A stretch of 64,000 nucleotides of DNA from an uncultured delta proteobacterium (GTDB lineage: Bacteria > Desulfobacterota > Binatia > Binatales > Binataceae): assembly GCA_963711565.1 (NCBI GenBank), contig CAVQEQ010000003.1, positions 1,024,001-1,088,000 of the forward strand, in the 5' to 3' direction. Positions 1,081-9,642 of this stretch are shown here, one piece after another. How positions within the stretch are numbered: the first letter of the stretch is position 1; each line of letters begins with the position of its first letter. The notes beneath the pieces are model-generated. The model had not been told where the DNA came from, did not search any database, and was given only the letters and a program-made list of their open reading frames with translations. A program made the translations under genes and the position numbers.

Positions 1081-1710
1081 TTAGTCCTGGATTAGTTCTG
1101 TGTTCCAGTAGGCGCTGTCAACCTGCGACAGGTACGGCATCCATTCGCGGTAGCGGCGCAGGCTGAACATCTCGGATGAGAACGGGGTCCATTCGGGGCG
1201 GCGCGGGCGGCGGAACAGATGCATCCCGGCTTCGTCGGGCGTGCGGCCGCCCTTGCGGCGATTGCAGTGATGGCACGAGCAGACGATGTTCTCCCACGTC
1301 AACATGCCGCCGCGCGAGCGCGGGATTACGTGGTCGAGGTTGAGCTCGGTGCGCGGCAATTTCTTGTGGCAGTACTGGCAGGTATTGCCGTCGCGGGCGA
1401 AGATGTTGAAACGCGAGAAGCGCACGTGGCGCTTGGGCACGCGCTCGTAGGCCGTCAGCAAGAGGACGCGCGGGACGCGGATGAAGCCGTTTACGACCCC
1501 CAGCCGCTCGTGCTGCACCTCGATCGATAGATCGCGCCAACTGTCGAAGTCGAAGGTGTGATACTGCTCGTCCACCGCTTTGGCAACGCCCTGATAAAGC
1601 AGCGCAAACGCGCGTTTGACCGACGTAACGTGAACGGGCAGGTACGAGCGATTGAGAACGAGAACCTTGCTGTTCAGCAGGCCCGCTCCCGGAAGACTGG
1701 GCGCAACCAT
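1081..1710 (-). CDS. HNH endonuclease (McrA/HNH_5 type)
   Basis: VLVLNRSY N-terminus; FSRFNIFARDGNTCQYC...LDHVIPRSRGG..TWENIVCSCHHCNRRKG. ATG 1710 preferred over 1764. Confidence 0.9.
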   Translation of the reverse strand: MVAPSLPGAGLLNSKVLVLNRSYLPVHVTSVKRAFALLYQGVAKAVDEQYHTFDFDSWRDLSIEVQHERLGVVNGFIRVPRVLLLTAYERVPKRHVRFSRFNIFARDGNTCQYCHKKLPRTELNLDHVIPRSRGGMLTWENIVCSCHHCNRRKGGRTPDEAGMHLFRRPRRPEWTPFSSEMFSLRRYREWMPYLSQVDSAYWNTELIQD

Positions 1711-1812
1711 GTCGGCCGCAGCAGACACCCCATGACGAGTATCGGCCCCATGATGGCAAGTCAAGATAGCTGAGGATTAAAAGCCCGTTATCGACAGGCT
1801 AACCGAGCTTGC

Positions 1813-1990: not shown

Positions 1991-3646
1991 GTGAAACGAG
2001 AAATTGCAATTAACGCGTCCACCCTCGAGGTGCGAGTCGCGCTGCTGGAAGATAACGAGCTGGCGGAATTCTACCTCGAGCGCAATCGCCAGGTGGGGCT
2101 GGCCGGTAACATCTATAAGGGCAAGGTCACGCGCGTGCTGCCCGGGATGCAGGCGGCGTTCGTCGATATCGGGCTGGAGAAGGCGGGCTTCCTGCACGTC
2201 TCGGATTTTCATGACGGCGTCTCGGCGCTCAACACGGTCGCGGAAGTGCTCGGCGAGGAAGATGTCGAGACCGAGCCGATCGGCGACAACGAGTTCGGAG
2301 ATCCGGAGGCAAGCATCGGCGAGGAAGCTGCTGCCGAGGGCAACGGCGATGGCGGCGAGGCGCGTCCGTCGCGCGGGCGGCGTCGGGGAGGACGAGGCCG
2401 GGGTCGCAGCCAGGCGCCGAATCGCTCGCGGCTGCCTATAGAGCAGCAACTGCGGCGCGGCCAGGACATTATCGTTCAGATCGCCAAGGAGCCGATGGGC
2501 ACCAAGGGCGCGCGGCTGACGTCGTCGATCTCGCTGCCGGGGCGCCATCTGGTCTTCACGCCGACCAGCAATCACATCGGGGTGTCGCGGCGAATCGCGA
2601 GCGCCGAAGAACGCGCGCGGCTGCGGCGAGACGTTGGAGAACTGCGGCCGGCGCAGGGCGGGTTTATCGTGCGGACCGCGTGTGAGGGCGTCATCCGCCG
2701 CGAGATCCAGCGCAACGTCGCGTTCCTGACCAAGCTGTGGAGCTCGATCCTGCGCAAGAACGAGAGCATGCCGCCCGCGTCGATCCTGTACAGCGACCTC
2801 GACGTGGCGCTGCGAATCGTGCGCGATCTTTTTTCCAGCGAAGTGGACCGGCTATGGTGCGACGATCCGACGACCTACAGCCGGGTGGTGCAGTTCGTGC
2901 AGAATTACATGCCGCGGCTGCGCGCGCGCGTGTCGCTGCATGACGGGCCGCAGCCGCTGTTCGATCGTTTCAACATCGAGCCGCAAATCGAGCGCGCGCT
3001 CGATCGCAAGGTATGGCTCAAGTCGGGCGGCTACCTGATTTTCGATCAGGCTGAAGCTCTCACCGCGATCGACGTAAACACAGGGCGCTTCGTCGGCAAG
3101 CGCAGCCAGGACGACACTATCTTCAAGACCAACCTCGAAGCGGTCGAGGAAGTCGTGAAGCATCTGCGGCTGCGCAATATCGGCGGCATCATCATCGTCG
3201 ATTTTATCGACATGGCGCGCGAGGGCGATCGCAAGAAAGTCAGCGATGCGCTGGCGACGGCACTCAAGCGCGACAAGGCGCGGACTTCGGCGCTCAAGAT
3301 TTCCGAGCTGGGCCTGGTGCAGATGACGCGCAAGCGTACGCGCGAGAGCCTGGAGAAGCTGCTGACCGACACGTGTCCGCGATGCGAAGGTCGGCGCGTG
3401 GTGAAATCAGTGCCGACACTGGCCGCCGAGGTGTTGCGCGGGATTCAGCGCGAGGCGGTATCCAAGGCAGCGGGCGACATGTTGATCGTCAAGCTGAATC
3501 CCGAAGTCGCGCGCTACCTCTACGATCACGGTGCGAAAGATCTCGAGACGCTCGAGCATCGGCTGTCGACGAAGATAGTGCTGCGATCGAACGACGGCCT
3601 CGAGCTCGGCGCATTCGAACTCGCGCGCGCCCCGGCCGCCGCGTAG
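1991..3646 (+). CDS. rng: Ribonuclease E/G family endoribonuclease
   Basis: GNIYKGKVTRVLPGMQAAFVDIG (S1), KEPMGTKGARL, IDVNTG, LRNIGGIIIVDFIDM, C-terminal CPRC zinc link. Confidence 0.93.
   Translation: MKREIAINASTLEVRVALLEDNELAEFYLERNRQVGLAGNIYKGKVTRVLPGMQAAFVDIGLEKAGFLHVSDFHDGVSALNTVAEVLGEEDVETEPIGDNEFGDPEASIGEEAAAEGNGDGGEARPSRGRRRGGRGRGRSQAPNRSRLPIEQQLRRGQDIIVQIAKEPMGTKGARLTSSISLPGRHLVFTPTSNHIGVSRRIASAEERARLRRDVGELRPAQGGFIVRTACEGVIRREIQRNVAFLTKLWSSILRKNESMPPASILYSDLDVALRIVRDLFSSEVDRLWCDDPTTYSRVVQFVQNYMPRLRARVSLHDGPQPLFDRFNIEPQIERALDRKVWLKSGGYLIFDQAEALTAIDVNTGRFVGKRSQDDTIFKTNLEAVEEVVKHLRLRNIGGIIIVDFIDMAREGDRKKVSDALATALKRDKARTSALKISELGLVQMTRKRTRESLEKLLTDTCPRCEGRRVVKSVPTLAAEVLRGIQREAVSKAAGDMLIVKLNPEVARYLYDHGAKDLETLEHRLSTKIVLRSNDGLELGAFELARAPAAA
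3552..3646 (+). repeat. Left copy of 95-bp direct repeat (current 3' end of rng)
   Basis: 83/95 identical to 8705-8799 by manual alignment. Confidence 0.9.
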
Positions 3647-3685
3647 CGGCTCACATCACCGTTGAGCCTCGAGCGTCTTAGTTTG

Positions 3686-5281
3686 ATGAGCGCAATAGTG
3701 AATATCAGACCGAACTACAATCTGGCGTTGCCTTTTCACGAAAACTCTGCTGCAAACCCACAAGCGTTGGCCTTGTTTGTGGGGGAGAAGCGGTTTTCTT
3801 ACGGAGAGCTGGGAAATCTAGCCCGTCGTATCTCGGGTTGGCTTGGCCTGAAAACCGGCGAGGTTTCGGGCAAGGTTGGAATCCTCGCATCTCGCACTAT
3901 AGAAGCGTATGCGGGAGTGCTGGGAACGCTGTGGTCCGGCGCAGCGTACGTCCCCATCAACCCTAACACCCCCGAGGACCGCCTGATTCGCATTCTTCAG
4001 CAGACGAAGCTGGATGCACTGATCGCCGATCAAGCCGGCCTGGACCTGCTTTCGGATCGTGTGCTCGAAATAGCGCCAAGCAGGATTCTCTTCGGAGCCA
4101 GTGCCAAGCCGTCGCAAAGTGCCTTGAGATTCCAGGGGATCGGCTTTGACAGCTTCTCAGATTTAGCTGACGAGGGACCCGATCAGCCAGTCACCGTGGC
4201 AGGAGATGCGCTGGTCTACATTATCTTCACCTCAGGCACCACGGGCACGCCAAAAGGCGTAATGATCGAAGCGGAGAGCGTCGCCCAATTTATCGAGATC
4301 ATGCACCGTCGCTTTAGATTTGGCGCTGACAACCGGGTGGCGGAAGCATCCGAACTCACCTTCGATGCTTCCGTCTTCGATATGTTCATGGCGTGGAGTG
4401 CGGGTGCTGCGTTGTATGTAGTGCCGGCCGCTCAGCTTATGGCGCCGGCGAAGTTCATCCGCGACCACGAGCTGACTATCTGGTTTTCCGTACCCTCGAC
4501 TGCATCTTTTATGGGACGAATGAAAATGCTGAAGCCCGGCGCATTTCCTTCGTTGCGCTGTTCGATCTTTGCAGGCGAGGCGCTGTCAGTGGCTACCGCT
4601 CAGGCGTGGCAGATCGCCGCCCCCAATAGCATCGTGGAAAATTTTTACGGACCGACCGAGGTGACAGTTGACTGCATTGCGCAGCGCCTTGAAGATCCGC
4701 CTTATGTCACGAGGAACCGCGGTACATTGGCGATTGGAACCCCCTTCCCGGGCATTCGGGCCGGCATTGTCGATGCAAATCTCAATTTTTTACCGCCGGA
4801 CAAGGAAGGAGAACTGGTCGTCTCGGGCCGACAAGTGGCGCGCGGATACTTCCAGGATCCCGAACTCACTGCGGCCCGTTTTCCCACACTGGAGGGAACC
4901 CGATGGTATCGCACGGGAGACCTGGCTTTCGAGGATTCCTCCGGGACGTTTCACCACCTCGGCCGAATCGACAATCAGGTCAAGATACTCGGCAACCGGG
5001 TTGAGCTTGAGGAAGTCGAAGCGCATTTGCGCGAAATTCTAGGAATAGACATGGTAACCGCCGTGGCATGGCCTCTCACCGACGGCCGCGCTGCCGGGAT
5101 CGTTGCTTTTCACTGCGCGCAGGGAGTTACTCGTGACGAGATCCGCGAGGAAATGAAAAAACGCGTGCCCGACTATATGGTTCCACAACGGGTACACGAA
5201 CTGGACTCACTACCGTTGGGATCAAGCGGGAAAATTGATCGAAAAGCACTGGTCCGAATGCTGGATGAAGCTAAGCTCTGA
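3686..5281 (+). CDS. Stand-alone amino acid adenylation enzyme (DltA-like)
   Basis: YIIFTSGTTGTPKG (A3), FDASV (A4), NFYGPTE (A5), YRTGD (A7), GRIDNQVKILGNRVEL (A8), SGKIDRK (A10). No carrier or condensation domain. Start could be TTG 3662. Confidence 0.9.
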   Translation: MSAIVNIRPNYNLALPFHENSAANPQALALFVGEKRFSYGELGNLARRISGWLGLKTGEVSGKVGILASRTIEAYAGVLGTLWSGAAYVPINPNTPEDRLIRILQQTKLDALIADQAGLDLLSDRVLEIAPSRILFGASAKPSQSALRFQGIGFDSFSDLADEGPDQPVTVAGDALVYIIFTSGTTGTPKGVMIEAESVAQFIEIMHRRFRFGADNRVAEASELTFDASVFDMFMAWSAGAALYVVPAAQLMAPAKFIRDHELTIWFSVPSTASFMGRMKMLKPGAFPSLRCSIFAGEALSVATAQAWQIAAPNSIVENFYGPTEVTVDCIAQRLEDPPYVTRNRGTLAIGTPFPGIRAGIVDANLNFLPPDKEGELVVSGRQVARGYFQDPELTAARFPTLEGTRWYRTGDLAFEDSSGTFHHLGRIDNQVKILGNRVELEEVEAHLREILGIDMVTAVAWPLTDGRAAGIVAFHCAQGVTRDEIREEMKKRVPDYMVPQRVHELDSLPLGSSGKIDRKALVRMLDEAKL

Positions 5282-5322
5282 GCCAGACTGCAGGACCGTC
5301 ACCTGTCACCAGGTCCTGGATG

Positions 5323-6904
5323 TTATGCCCGTCTGAATCTCAGCAATTCCTGGCTGGCAACTGCCCCATCCGCTGCTCTTGGAAGCATATCTACCAGCAC
5401 AATTTCGGCTGGCGCCAATTCTTCCGGCAGGTTTTGGCTGCAATGCGCAACGAGTTGATTGATCAACTCGTTGCGAAGCTTACCTTGTCCAGGCGCATTT
5501 GCTAACCGCGCCAACTTGGAAGCGTTTGTCTCTGGCCAGCCGATCGCCGGTAAAGTTATCCCTTGCAATGATCGTTTAGGTACAAAAAACGCATCATAAC
5601 TTCCGTCAGGCCAGGCCTGCCGCCCAACTGAGGAAGACTGCAAATCCCAAGCCCTCCGTCTCCAAGTCGAGAAGAGCCTGAGGATGAATTCCTTCCGCCA
5701 GATTTTGTTCGAGCCCGTGCCGCAACTCCCCGGCCGTATACCCGGCATCCGCGACTCTTAGAATCGCCAGGGCTGCGAGATCCTTCTCGATGCGTGCATT
5801 TCGGATACACTTGATGCCGATACGCTCGTTTGGATGCTGCCGCAACATCGAACGAACGTCGTCCAATGTCCACTTGCGCTCAGTCCAGTCTAGAAATTCA
5901 TCATCGAACGAAGCTCCGGTTTCGTGACCCACGTGAAGAATCGCTTCATATCGGTATCGGGTCATTTCGTTGTCCGCACGGCCACGCAGAGGTCGGATAT
6001 CCACCCTCGATATCCTGGGAAATTGATGCTGCAAGGAGAGAAAATATGCTGGAGAGATGACCAGTTCCGGTTCTCTCTCAATACGCCGCCGAATCCGCTC
6101 ACGCAGTTCTCCAGCATTCATCCCATCTACGGCTTGAAACAATTCCACTGACGACGCAAAAGCCTCCAACAGCTGCAGGCTTCGGACATCGCCAACATAA
6201 ACATACCCGCCGGGCCTTACGATGTTGACCGCTTTTTCGAGAACCTTCGTCAAATAGGCAATATTGGGGAAAAACTGCACGACGGAGCTGAGCACCAACG
6301 TATCGAACAGATCTTCATCGAGGCCATCTAAGTGGTCCGCCCTCCTCTCTATCACTTCGACTCGCGCTGCCACCGCTGGAACTGTCTGCAATTGTTCTCT
6401 GAGCCTATCCAGCACTGCCGGCGAAAAATCCACTGCAACATACCGGTCGCAGCGTGGCGCTATCTGCATGACTAACATGCCGGTTCCACAACCTATTTCG
6501 CATACAGTCTTTGGCCTAAGCTGAAGAATATCGCTTACTGTATTTTCAACCCACTCCCGCATCTCACTCGCGGGAATTGTTCCTCGTGTGTAGCTACTAT
6601 TCCAGCCTGTTGTATTGAATCCGACAGATGCAGAGGCCGCATCCTTAGTAAGTTGGCTCAAATCGAATACCTTTCGCCATTTGCCGAGAACGGTGGACCC
6701 GGTATTCGCACGGCCCAAGACATCATCGACGAACGCATCGTCCGGCACGACAAACGCTACAAGGTCGTCATGGTCATAAACTACAGCGGCCTCTCGCACA
6801 CCCAGGTGCGTGTGCAGTACGTTTTCGATCATAGCTTGCTGGTTGGCACGTTGTGCCTCTTTGTTTGTCCCGCCATCCCCGGCCTTGTCAGTCAGCGTGA
6901 CCAT
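5323..6904 (-). pseudogene. NRPS-type SAM methyltransferase embedded in an isolated adenylation small subdomain; one +1 frameshift near 5612 (possibly a sequencing error)
   Basis: Frame 5606-7042 has IENVLHTHLGVREAAVV, FNTTGWNSSYT, VCEIGCGTGML, VDFS, GDVRSL and YRYEAIL. Frame 5323-5748 continues with PDGSYDAFF...LPEELAPAEIVLVDMLPR. ATG 6904 has AAGGA upstream. Confidence 0.75.
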
Positions 6905-6923
6905 CCGATCATCCTTGTCAGCC

Positions 6924-7175
6924 TCAATCGCCGCTGCGGGCAGTCCGTGTAAGAGCGTAAATCGCATCGATGCTGTCGATTTGGTCTCTATCAAAACCGA
7001 TCTGCGTAAAATCGATTCCGAAATTCTCTTCCAGGAACACAACGATTTCCACCGCGTCTATCGACTGCAAACGTCCGCTATTCAATAGGGAATCGTCATC
7101 CGCCAGCGGCCCATCATCACCGCTGCCAGTCAACAGACCCAGCACAAACTCGCGTATTTCTGCCTTTCCTTTCAT
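6924..7175 (-). CDS. Acyl/aminoacyl carrier protein (DltC-like)
   Basis: 83 aa, acidic; DDSLLNSGRLQSIDAVEIVVFLEENFGI with the phosphopantetheine Ser in a QS variant of the DS motif. Confidence 0.85.
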   Translation of the reverse strand: MKGKAEIREFVLGLLTGSGDDGPLADDDSLLNSGRLQSIDAVEIVVFLEENFGIDFTQIGFDRDQIDSIDAIYALTRTARSGD

Positions 7176-7182
7176 AGGACCC

Positions 7183-8572
7183 CTAAAAATGAATGAAGAA
7201 CAAACCCGCCAGGTACTTCAAGTGTTCCACAAGTGGATACATTCGCTCATCGGCTTCAAATACATTCAACATACAGTAAAAAAAGCCAACGCCAAACACG
7301 GGCAGGATACGCCTGCGAAAAAAGCCGGTGGGCTTGGGTCCGCGGTTTCGCAGTTGAGAAATGCATAGTCCAGTCGCAAGAATGGCGTTGTAAAAGAACA
7401 ATACCTGGTAATTCGCGATTGCTCTCCACAGTCCATAATCGCGAACAATCTGCCAATCCCGCATGAGGTGGTACAGCGAGTTGCCGAAGAATGCGGCGGC
7501 GAAGGTCGCAAAGATCATGCGTAGTCGTTTATGCCCTTTCCAGTAGCGGAAAAACGTCGGATAAAAGAAGAAATCGACCAGCAATTCTTTGAAATAGTAG
7601 TAAAACCGGTTGAAGAATTCAGTGATGGTTGTGGAAGACAGCGGCCGATAAGTATTCCGCAGAGCGTTGAATCCAGCCATGCGGCAAGCGGCGATGAATC
7701 TGTGCCCAAAAATGGTGAAGGTGAGAATGATCTCGAAAAACGCGAGTATCTGACTTTCCCAGCACAGATGCCAGGCAAATGGCGTTCCTTGCACACTCAT
7801 GGTCAATGCTTGATCAGAACGTCGGAATCTGCAAGTACCCGTGAAAGAAACCCATCCAGGAGACCTGAAACGCCGCCAGCATGATCGCCCACGCAAGCAG
7901 CTTCAGACCTTTCAATTGCACAACTGCTAGTTGTTCTGAATTCTGTGCTTCTATGCGTCGAAGATATGCGGCGCCCTTGGGAAACGGTGTGTTCGTGGAT
8001 CCCCAGATAGGGCGATAGGTTGCCAACTCCAGCGTCAGATCGCGAGCGGGCTTCGAACTTCGGTCGATCACTGAATACCCGATGAACCAGAAATAACTTG
8101 CAATCAGGCCGACCAGGTCCCATAGAATCGAGTATGGCAATGAACGCGGCGTGGCGGCGCATGCAAAGAGCATCAGCACGGTGAACCCGATAAGAAGAAC
8201 TGCGACCGGCCTTTGCCCAAACCACGACTTGGGCCGCCGCGTGGCGCACCAGTACAGGAAAATCCCCAATGCTATGACCATTAGATTCAAGCCCAAGAGG
8301 AGTGGCTCCCGGTAGGTTGGCAGCACGGCTAAAATGGGGACAATCGCCAAAATGAATCGGCGGCGCTCGGGCATAAAAGTCATGAGCGCGAGTAGTAATG
8401 TAAAAGACATCGCAGAGAGCAGATTGGGAGAAAAATACCGAAAGCCCAAACCGAACGCAGCCAGGATCGTAATTCTGCCTAACGTGGTCTGCGCAAAGGA
8501 AACTACCCTGGGGAAGGTCTCTATACGTGGAATAAGGCGGAAATCAGAAATGACGGTTCGTTCCACTCCCAA
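7183..8572 (-). pseudogene. MBOAT-family membrane acyltransferase (DltB/AlgI-like); one +1 frameshift at ~7818 (likely a sequencing error)
   Basis: Two overlapping hydrophobic ORFs join as ...LQIPT|SDQALTMS.... Motifs GFNALRNTYRPLSSTTITEFFNRFYYYFKELLVDFFFYP and GNSLYH (candidate catalytic His). Confidence 0.75.
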
Positions 8573-8704: not shown

Positions 8705-8799
8705 TCGAGCATCGGCTGTCAACCAAGATCGTGGTTCGATCGAACGACGGCATCGAGCTCGGCGCGTTCGAAATCGCCCGCGCGCCGGCCGCTGCCTAG
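8705..8799 (+). repeat. Right copy of 95-bp direct repeat (displaced rng 3' end)
   Basis: Translates EHRLSTKIVVRSNDGIELGAFEIARAPAAA*, versus EHRLSTKIVLRSNDGLELGAFELARAPAAA* in rng. Confidence 0.9.
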
Positions 8800-8847
8800 C
8801 CGATAGAGCACGCTGCGCAATCGCTGCTCACGCGCGAGAGGCCAGAA

Positions 8848-9642
8848 TCATGACGGCTTGGGTGACCAGGGCACCGGCTTCTTGTCGAAGAAGGACTCGA
8901 GGCCTGAGCGGGTTTCGTCGGTGATGTGCGGCGCGGCGGTGTACTCGGTCATGCTCATCGCTATTGCCTGACCGGAGAATTTGCACATAAGCGACTTGGT
9001 GGTGGCTTCCGCTTTCGGCGCGTTCATCGCGATCGCGTCCGCCCATGCAAGCGCGGTGTCCATCAGCTGGCTGGGAGGCACGACCGTGTTGACCAGTCCA
9101 AGAGCCATCGCGCGATCCGCGGTCACGAGTTCGCCGGTCAGCAGCAGATACCGCGCGACGCGCTCGCCCACCAATCGCATCAGGTGCAGGATTACCATGC
9201 CCGCCTGAATGCCCTGCTTCATTTCGGTGTAGCCGATCCGCGCGCTGTCGGCGGCGACGGCCAGGTCGCACGCGCTCAGAAAGCCGGCGCCGTTGCCGAC
9301 CGCGACTCCGTTGACGGCGGCGATCGAAGGTTTGCCGAGGCGATAGACCCGTTCGATCAACGCCTCGCCGCGGAGCGCGCCATCCCAGACCGATCCTGCT
9401 TCGTCGATGCGCAACTGGTCGAGCATCGAGCGCAGTTCGCCGAGGTCCATGCCGGCGGAGAATGCGGACCCTGCGCCCGTGAAGACAAGGGCACGAACGC
9501 CGCGATCGGCCTCGGCGCGCGCAATCGCGGCCATCAGGGCGTCGATCATCGCGGCGCTGAGCGCGTTGCGATGGTCGGGGTTATTGAGCGTGATTATCGC
9601 GGCCGGGTAGCGAGCTTCGTAGAGAACGATTTGATCAGCCAT
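8848..9642 (-). CDS. Enoyl-CoA hydratase/isomerase family protein
   Basis: ITLNNPDHRNAL, AFSAGMDL, IAAVNGVAVGNG, LLTGELVTADRAMALGLVN. RBS GGAG. Confidence 0.92.
   Translation of the reverse strand: MADQIVLYEARYPAAIITLNNPDHRNALSAAMIDALMAAIARAEADRGVRALVFTGAGSAFSAGMDLGELRSMLDQLRIDEAGSVWDGALRGEALIERVYRLGKPSIAAVNGVAVGNGAGFLSACDLAVAADSARIGYTEMKQGIQAGMVILHLMRLVGERVARYLLLTGELVTADRAMALGLVNTVVPPSQLMDTALAWADAIAMNAPKAEATTKSLMCKFSGQAIAMSMTEYTAAPHITDETRSGLESFFDKKPVPWSPKPS

Follow-up and report, generated by a model that had tools for sequence, protein, structure and literature searches.

We analyzed a 64,000-nucleotide stretch from an uncultured member of the Binataceae (contig CAVQEQ010000003.1, positions 1,024,001 to 1,088,000; hereafter the window), and focused on a four-gene islet at positions 3686 to 8572. 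The islet encodes an adenylation (A) enzyme, a free carrier protein, a methyltransferase (MT) related to those of nonribosomal peptide synthetases (NRPSs) and a membrane protein predicted to have the fold of the membrane-bound O-acyltransferases (MBOATs). We propose, with a probability of about 60%, that it is a mobile, intact cassette in which an aminoacyl group is N-methylated on the carrier before a divergent MBOAT transfers it, in one step, to a lipid-linked glycan or a membrane lipid. The original prediction for this DNA had an amino acid loaded onto the carrier, methylated in trans and transferred by the MBOAT; this order of events is consistent with the comparative data described below.

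The four genes recur together across genomes

The A enzyme gene (3686-5281, plus strand; 531 amino acids, Pfam AMP-binding and AMP-binding_C) is met by three converging genes on the minus strand, which encode the membrane protein (8572-7183; ~462 amino acids), the carrier (7175-6924; 83 amino acids) and the MT (6904-5323; ~526 amino acids). These four genes, at the coordinates first assigned to them, make up the whole islet. Pfam detected no condensation, thioesterase or SGNH/DltD protein encoded within it, in agreement with the original prediction, and the DltD profile (PF04914), positive in B. subtilis and L. lactis as controls, found nothing in four out of four cassette genomes (G000, 95% complete, and three others), a search that did not extend to diverged, unlinked SGNH proteins. 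Genome G000 has both of its condensation domains within one NRPS on contig C4, which we considered as a partner of the cassette and rejected as unlinked.

We collected 163 loci with the MT: 68 in which it stands alone, 85 in which it is embedded in an NRPS and 10 cut by contig ends. Among stand-alone loci flanked by 5 kb in both directions, an MBOAT gene was present in 34/34, a carrier gene in 33/34 and an A enzyme gene in 32/34 (the misses are frameshifted loci), whereas an MBOAT gene accompanied 0/85 NRPS-embedded MTs; these loci were found by MT search and include kin and near-duplicates, and are not independent. The predicted co-occurrence of the four proteins is thus borne out in every well-flanked locus and is not a matter of chance. 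The set recurs in dozens of other soil genomes, and in six loci (L022, L036, L040, L115, L118, and L121) the four genes form one co-oriented run.

The cassette is intact

In the window, the MT gene and the membrane protein gene are each broken by one extra base, at 5613 and 7818, respectively. We checked short-read contigs from 4 of the 22 listed sequencing runs. Both extra bases are missing from those of runs X1 (possibly the source sample), X2 (from another study) and X3; the contig of run X6 lacks the base at 7818 and does not cover 5613. Because the short-read contigs are without the extra bases, both frameshifts are assembly errors and the cassette is intact. An intact MT of 547 amino acids (P0001), 100% identical over the query, is present in the protein collection. 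The ratio of nonsynonymous to synonymous substitution rates (dN/dS) was 0.06-0.28 in 18/18 comparisons, made against L011, L012, and L013 on both sides of each break, and the cassette appears to be under purifying selection. The picture within the species is less clean: among the MT differences listed for run X2, 17 nucleotide changes gave 7 amino acid changes.

These data bear on whether the islet consists of fragments of a decayed NRPS, an origin that the original prediction had named as a threat to itself, or is a pseudogenised island. Two frameshifts in the window and an MT that resembles part of an A domain are what decay might leave behind. The frameshifts are artefacts, however, and the dN/dS values are low; the best 120 MT homologs are mostly 480-550 amino acids long (236-753 amino acids searched), and no condensation domain was found in two of the five cassette genomes tested. 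We regard decay as highly improbable.

The methyltransferase resembles the insert of an interrupted adenylation domain

The sole strong match of the MT in the PDB is the interrupted adenylation domain of TioS (5WMM, E 1e-60), which upholds the NRPS origin proposed for it. Pfam AMP-binding_C matches both of its ends, the C-terminal match being weak (E 0.036). Because of the TioS match and the matches at both ends, we read the protein as a stand-alone unit in which a type I N-MT is flanked by the first and second halves of the small adenylation subdomain (Asub). The earlier label of an NRPS-type MT is correct as far as it goes, and is amended here in that the enzyme is wrapped in both halves of Asub. 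The protein has the hallmarks of type I: homology to the TioS M domain over its full length, an S-adenosylmethionine (SAM) motif (EIGCGTG, at ~6499-6479, its residues invariant in 50/50 homologs) and the a8-a9 boundary motif L(V/A)(A/G)(Y/F)xxP, here LVAFVVP. It has neither an A core nor an A8 motif, and is therefore not a complete family 1 interrupted adenylation domain; the A10 lysine is absent in 50/50 aligned homologs.

Asub is retained across MT homologs of 50-100% identity. The MT of TioS makes contact with Asub and nothing else (PMC10510592), which would explain why a freed MT has kept Asub. The Asub-MT-Asub unit is also the second insert of an NRPS in locus L078. We infer from the record title, the architecture and PMC7794379 that this NRPS is FrsG-like; in FrsG, a second Asub-MT-Asub unit lies behind a type II O-MT (PMC8341866). 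In genome G004 (L003:1177-4212 / L219), an Asub-MT-Asub unit is attached behind the thioesterase of an NRPS whose last domains are adenylation, thiolation and thioesterase (A-T-TE); a canonical MBOAT-SGNH pair, a phosphopantetheinyl transferase (PPTase) and a pectate-lyase-like protein are encoded nearby. The G004 arrangement is a possible intermediate between embedded and free MTs.

The methyltransferase may act on the carrier

The carrier is free and has a predicted phosphopantetheine serine, Ser38 (codon 7062-7064, motif GRLQSID), that is invariant in 25/25 sequences. Its match to PF00550 lies below the cut-off, and it falls below the DltC cut-offs as well. We rejected the OlsH/OlsI ornithine-lipid acyl carrier proteins (ACPs) as its family: they gave the best NCBIfam match, but at 37 bits against a cut-off of 130. 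The accessible part of PMC12971839 mentions neither MBOATs nor Acidobacteria.

Complex prediction gave the MT and the carrier a score of 0.55, compared with 0.14 for the best control, with at least 90% contact agreement between runs and a partner predicted local distance difference test (pLDDT) value of at least 82. The pass mark was reached by 116/157 solved complexes and 2/215 mismatches. Of these, only 18 solved complexes passed with scores of 0.60 or below, as did both mismatches; passes in that range are often wrong, and the prediction lends weak support to the pairing.

Such a weak prediction would also be compatible with an MT that acts elsewhere, i.e., on the free amino acid, on the adenylate or on the product after transfer, and the timing of embedded MTs does vary (PMC10510592). 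Against this, residues that serve the aminoacyl-phosphopantetheine arm are present in type I MTs (PMC8341866), Asub has been retained over the identity range given above, and in most loci the next gene after that of the carrier is the MT gene. A cytoplasmic MT would, moreover, hardly be able to reach a product in the outer leaflet. Methylation away from the carrier seems to us rather improbable, and we prefer methylation of the tethered amino acid.

The adenylation enzyme probably activates a small L-amino acid

The pocket of the A enzyme, read by motifs, is D-A-F-F-I-A-F-V-D-K, and many relatives have DNLFIAFVDK; the A10 lysine (Lys516) is present. We take the pocket positions to follow GrsA numbering, in which Asp331 is typical of serine pockets. 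Over the pocket region, the nearest single-domain structures are 8K4R, presumably VinM (E 5e-41), IdnL7 (6AKD, E 2e-39) and AlmE (4OXI, E 2e-33), all far above DltA, and the enzyme stays below two DltA-family cut-offs (275 bits versus 476, and 263 versus 560). DltA uses L198 and C269 for D-Ala, and IdnL7 takes Gly, L-Ala and L-Ser via C217, A285, and T318 (PMC11253843). The cassette enzyme has Ala/Ala where DltA has Leu198/Cys269, and Ala/Ala/Asp at the three IdnL7 positions.

An accessory FkbM-type MT gene occurs in 23 of the 68 stand-alone loci. The encoded protein has no sequence match in the PDB; it is 39% identical to the first MT (an O-MT) of the FrsG-like NRPS in L078 and has the motif DxGxNxG, that of type II Ser/Thr O-methyltransferases (PMC8341866). 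Our best guess at the substrate is a small L-amino acid, L-Ser in the first place because of the pocket and of this Ser/Thr-type gene in relatives, and otherwise Ala or Gly. Six loci (L034, L037, L038, L043, L106, and L107) combine two different A enzymes with one carrier, and a dipeptidyl donor is possible there.

The membrane protein is predicted to be a divergent one-step acyltransferase

Intact homologs of the membrane protein, including that of L011, have no match in Pfam, NCBIfam or PDB sequences. An AlphaFold model of the L011 protein (pLDDT 82) retrieved MBOATs as all of its top 15 Foldseek hits, DltB (6BUG) among them with template modeling (TM) scores of 0.53/0.57, and Atlas neighbors likewise counted toward the MBOAT fold. 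One of 45 further family members matches MBOAT_2 (E 0.011), a distant member matches TIGR04091 DltB (E 8e-6), and an N..P..S....F(W/F)NR segment aligns to a canonical MBOAT at low probability. A candidate catalytic histidine in GNxxYH (codon 7468-7470) is kept in 139/147 diverse members; from its spacing, we infer that it occupies the position of the DltB catalytic histidine. Tyr317 is invariant in 147/147. The protein is, as modeled, a divergent MBOAT-fold acyltransferase of a family without Pfam or NCBIfam annotation, which comprises 946 clusters at E ≤0.001 and 389 at E ≤1e-30 (50% identity clusters). The name MBOAT that it was first given therefore stands by fold, whereas no Pfam or NCBIfam MBOAT model recognizes even the intact sequence.

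Dlt and PatAB both depend on a tyrosine shuttle with a C-terminal FxYxxF motif and on an enzyme of the SGNH type; in PatAB, the shuttle is at the C terminus of PatA and the partner is PatB (PMC12148441). A strict FxYxxF match ended none of the 69 locus MBOATs, one of which matched loosely, and none of 127 representatives; nor did any small open reading frame (ORF) near the 69 loci, of the kind that would encode a DltX-like microprotein, end in FxYxxF. Since neither a tyrosine shuttle nor an SGNH partner was found, the simplest reading would be transfer in one step, to an acceptor that comes in from the membrane.

The competing route has two steps, as in Dlt and Pat, and leads to a periplasmic polymer or protein, with the shuttle or second transferase unlinked or too diverged to be recognized. 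Bacterial MBOAT systems that acylate polymers do use a tyrosine shuttle and an SGNH protein (PMC12148441), MT-less relatives of the cassette lie in polysaccharide clusters (see below), and the invariant Tyr317 could be counted in its favor. The failure to find FxYxxF in the MBOATs or nearby ORFs, the absence of DltD in all four genomes and a repeat-bounded unit of four genes only all tell against this route, which we judge quite unlikely; we retain one-step transfer.

The methyltransferase is an addition to a wider family

An MBOAT-first search at E ≤1e-20 hit nine of 401 genomes of the Terriglobales, the order of G317: four with the MT and five without. Four of the five MT-less loci are part of polysaccharide clusters (Wza/WecA/GT4), and their A enzymes have Cys at position 301 of the pocket. 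The concern that homologous A/ACP/MBOAT loci might lack the MT was thus partly justified (5/9 hits). In the class to which the window belongs, the MBOAT occurs in 27/301 genomes at E ≤0.001; in the regions retrieved for 18 strong hits other than G000, only G012 has the MT (G018 and G023 are counted in denominators only). Other regions of this set contain PAP2_3 fusions together with a fatty-acid hydroxylase, or LtaS-like sulfatases together with a PEP-mutase-family gene. Three changes of the MT label are required on an unrooted FastTree tree that comprises 69 MBOATs. The MT is an add-on for tailoring, clade-specific, in a wider A/ACP/MBOAT family that appears to swap its tailoring enzymes and of which the cassette forms one branch. 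The window MT groups with that of L011, whose record is titled delta proteobacterium, inside Acidobacteriaceae sequences (FastTree, unrooted), and for this reason we suggest that the cassette was imported from Acidobacteria.

Several relatives differ in content. The second, divergent MT cassette in the window's genus (L201, in G012) is on a contig other than that of rng, the RNase E/G gene next to the islet, and has a TylF-type O-MT gene between the carrier and MT genes. The MT-less loci L223-L226, in polysaccharide clusters, also contain C5-epimerase-like and amidinotransferase-like genes. In L203, L205, and L212, the A/MBOAT/ACP genes adjoin an ORF of ~1,200 amino acids with a PAP2_3 domain; that of L203 has a spermidine-synthase-like domain too, and L212 has a fatty-acid hydroxylase gene. 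A distant MBOAT branch (L206-L218) comes with acyl-CoA-ligase-like loaders, LtaS-like sulfatases and a gene of the phosphoenolpyruvate (PEP)-mutase family, and G224 has four tandem MBOAT copies.

Neighboring genes favor a lipid or lipid-linked acceptor

PAP2_3 lipid phosphotransferase-like genes are present in 13/63 MBOAT loci of at least 10 kb versus 0/74 NRPS loci, a count inflated by kin (about six separate lineages by eye; 7 of the 13 loci seeded the profile). The background is 13 matches in ~27 Mb of five genomes, i.e., ~0.5 per Mb. GT-C, GT87, and AT3 genes flank four MT loci (L047, L071, L102, and L121). Close to Terracidiphilus loci, MurJ, RNase R, and EAL genes have the appearance of flanking genes of the host, and we did not count them as evidence. 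We favor a lipid or lipid-linked glycan as the probable acceptor over a soluble metabolite.

The soluble alternative has the MBOAT replace a condensation or release domain and acylate a small alcohol or amine, giving a small soluble or secreted metabolite. In its favor, the nearest A enzyme structures, VinM and IdnL7, are natural-product enzymes, both MTs (Asub-MT and FkbM) derive from NRPS domains, two A enzymes in six loci recall dipeptidyl-carrier pathways, and L002/L201 have a TylF-type O-MT. No transporter, thioesterase or regulator recurs across the loci, however, and what does recur are PAP2_3, GT-C, AT3, LtaS-like sulfatase and polysaccharide export genes. We consider a soluble product unlikely, and keep to an acceptor in the membrane.

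A proposed mechanism

We propose four steps. First, a host PPTase would prime Ser38 of the carrier; two PPTases are encoded in genome G000. Second, the carrier would receive a small L-amino acid from the A enzyme; L-Ser is the likeliest candidate, followed by Ala or Gly. Third, this amino acid, still tethered, would be N-methylated in trans by the stand-alone TioS-type enzyme, whose Asub has no catalytic lysine and may serve as scaffold and carrier dock. Fourth, the MBOAT would accept the thioester on the cytoplasmic side and use it to acylate an acceptor; with no tyrosine shuttle or SGNH partner, that acceptor would enter from the membrane. The envelope would thereby change in charge or chemistry.

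Several observations weigh against this scheme. The score of the MT-carrier complex falls in the weak range. PF03062 matched 0/45 further members of the membrane protein family, the best Foldseek E value was 3e-3 with none reaching 0.001, and profile comparison with a canonical MBOAT gave a probability of 6%. The FkbM gene is missing from the window and also occurs beside A enzymes without Asp331 (L034, L043, L106, and L107). The A/ACP/MBOAT family works without the MT in many genomes. Lastly, most loci, including the window, have no adjoining lipid or glycan gene, and the neighboring genes that do occur point both to lipids and to polysaccharides.

Comparison with known systems

The cassette works like Dlt and Alm and belongs to neither. 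With Dlt (DltA, DltC, DltB, DltX, and DltD) it shares a free A enzyme, a free carrier and a protein of the MBOAT fold for which a carrier thioester would be the donor. It differs in having no DltD and no DltX/FxYxxF, an A enzyme below the DltA cut-offs, an MBOAT outside PF03062 and an added N-MT. Hence, the description "Dlt-like" in the original prediction fits the logic only: the A enzyme is nearer to VinM, IdnL7, and AlmE and is without the D-Ala residues of DltA, and the MBOAT forms a separate family with no tyrosine shuttle. The A enzyme is close to AlmE of AlmEFG, which glycylates lipopolysaccharide in Vibrio cholerae El Tor; the cassette is predicted to add methylation, and its pocket has Ala/Ala versus AlmE Leu248/Cys316. 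As in the route proposed here, AlmF and AlmG aminoacylate an envelope lipid from a carrier, with no SGNH step. The cassette, whose final enzyme is predicted to have the MBOAT fold, presumably does not end in an AlmG-type enzyme, since AlmG is not an MBOAT.

Like the cassette MT, TioS (family 1, type I M), ColG (5a), and FrsG (5c) have a type I N-MT inside Asub, and the optional FkbM gene is of the same type II kind as the O-MT that precedes the second Asub-MT-Asub unit of FrsG. In contrast to all three, the cassette MT is a separate protein without the A core, A8 or A10 lysine and is predicted to work for a membrane acyltransferase, not in the assembly of a peptide. VinM and IdnL7 are the best pocket-region matches of the A enzyme, which lacks their polyketide context; the VinM pathway forms an amide onto an aminoacyl carrier. 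Fold and histidine relate the MBOAT to PatAB and to the lipid MBOATs LPCAT3, MBOAT7, and DGAT1; the latter use acyl-CoA, in contrast to the cassette enzyme as proposed. Lipid MBOATs transfer in one step without a partner. We found no paper on the four-gene combination in the literature searched, whose coverage left out most subscription journals.

The rng 3' end as an insertion site

To the left of the islet lies rng (1991-3646, plus strand; PF10150 and PF20833), and to its right a convergent enoyl-CoA hydratase gene (8848-9642). The 3' end of rng is the left copy of a 96-nt direct repeat (3552-3647, plus strand), which is 88% identical to the right copy, a non-coding rng 3' end that closes the islet (8705-8800, plus strand). 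Among 30 loci of the genus, the gap between rng and the hydratase gene is 45 nt in G007 and 73 nt in G723. With the two genes so close together in these genomes, we conclude that the islet is an insertion. Its GC content is 53.5%, compared with 64%-65% in flanking genes, and GC at third codon positions is 0.47-0.62 versus 0.81. No integrase gene was found in the islet of the window.

The rng end was matched in 43 of 47 genus genomes searched. In eight of the 43 (G000, G188, G020, G725, G722, G732, G011, and G243), a second, degenerate copy of 28-139 nt lies 0.5-5.2 kb downstream, and the copy start points vary. One contig of run X2 has a different insert, of 2582 nt, at the same rng site. The rng 3' end is a cargo hotspot in the genus, and the variation among the repeat starts suggests capture anchored by homology instead of a fixed att site. 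Further left in the window, 2-682 and 1081-1764 (both minus strand) hold a gene for an HNH endonuclease, located upstream of rng, and a low-GC ORF that is open-ended. The latter, left of rng, resembles what we take to be an AbiTii-type defense protein.

Implications

A broader picture can be drawn, which we offer tentatively and would sooner expect to fail than to hold in full. In it, the unannotated family of hundreds of bacterial MBOATs would form modules that acylate the envelope in one step from a carrier and can exchange their tailoring enzymes. Its acidobacterial branch would have split an N,O-dimethylation machinery of the FrsG/ColG kind into free enzymes, yielding a new class of N-methyl, N,O-dimethyl or quaternary (betaine-type) seryl membrane lipids, and Asub-MT-Asub would be an in-trans N-MT for carrier-bound amino acids.

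The cassette predicts an undescribed envelope modification in soil Acidobacteria. PMC8341866 reports few stand-alone methyltransferases in these NRPS pathways; if our proposal is true, a free-standing TioS-type N-MT would be a useful part for peptide engineering. A carrier-fed MBOAT without a tyrosine shuttle or SGNH partner would, if true, represent a different mechanism, in a family that Pfam and NCBIfam do not capture.

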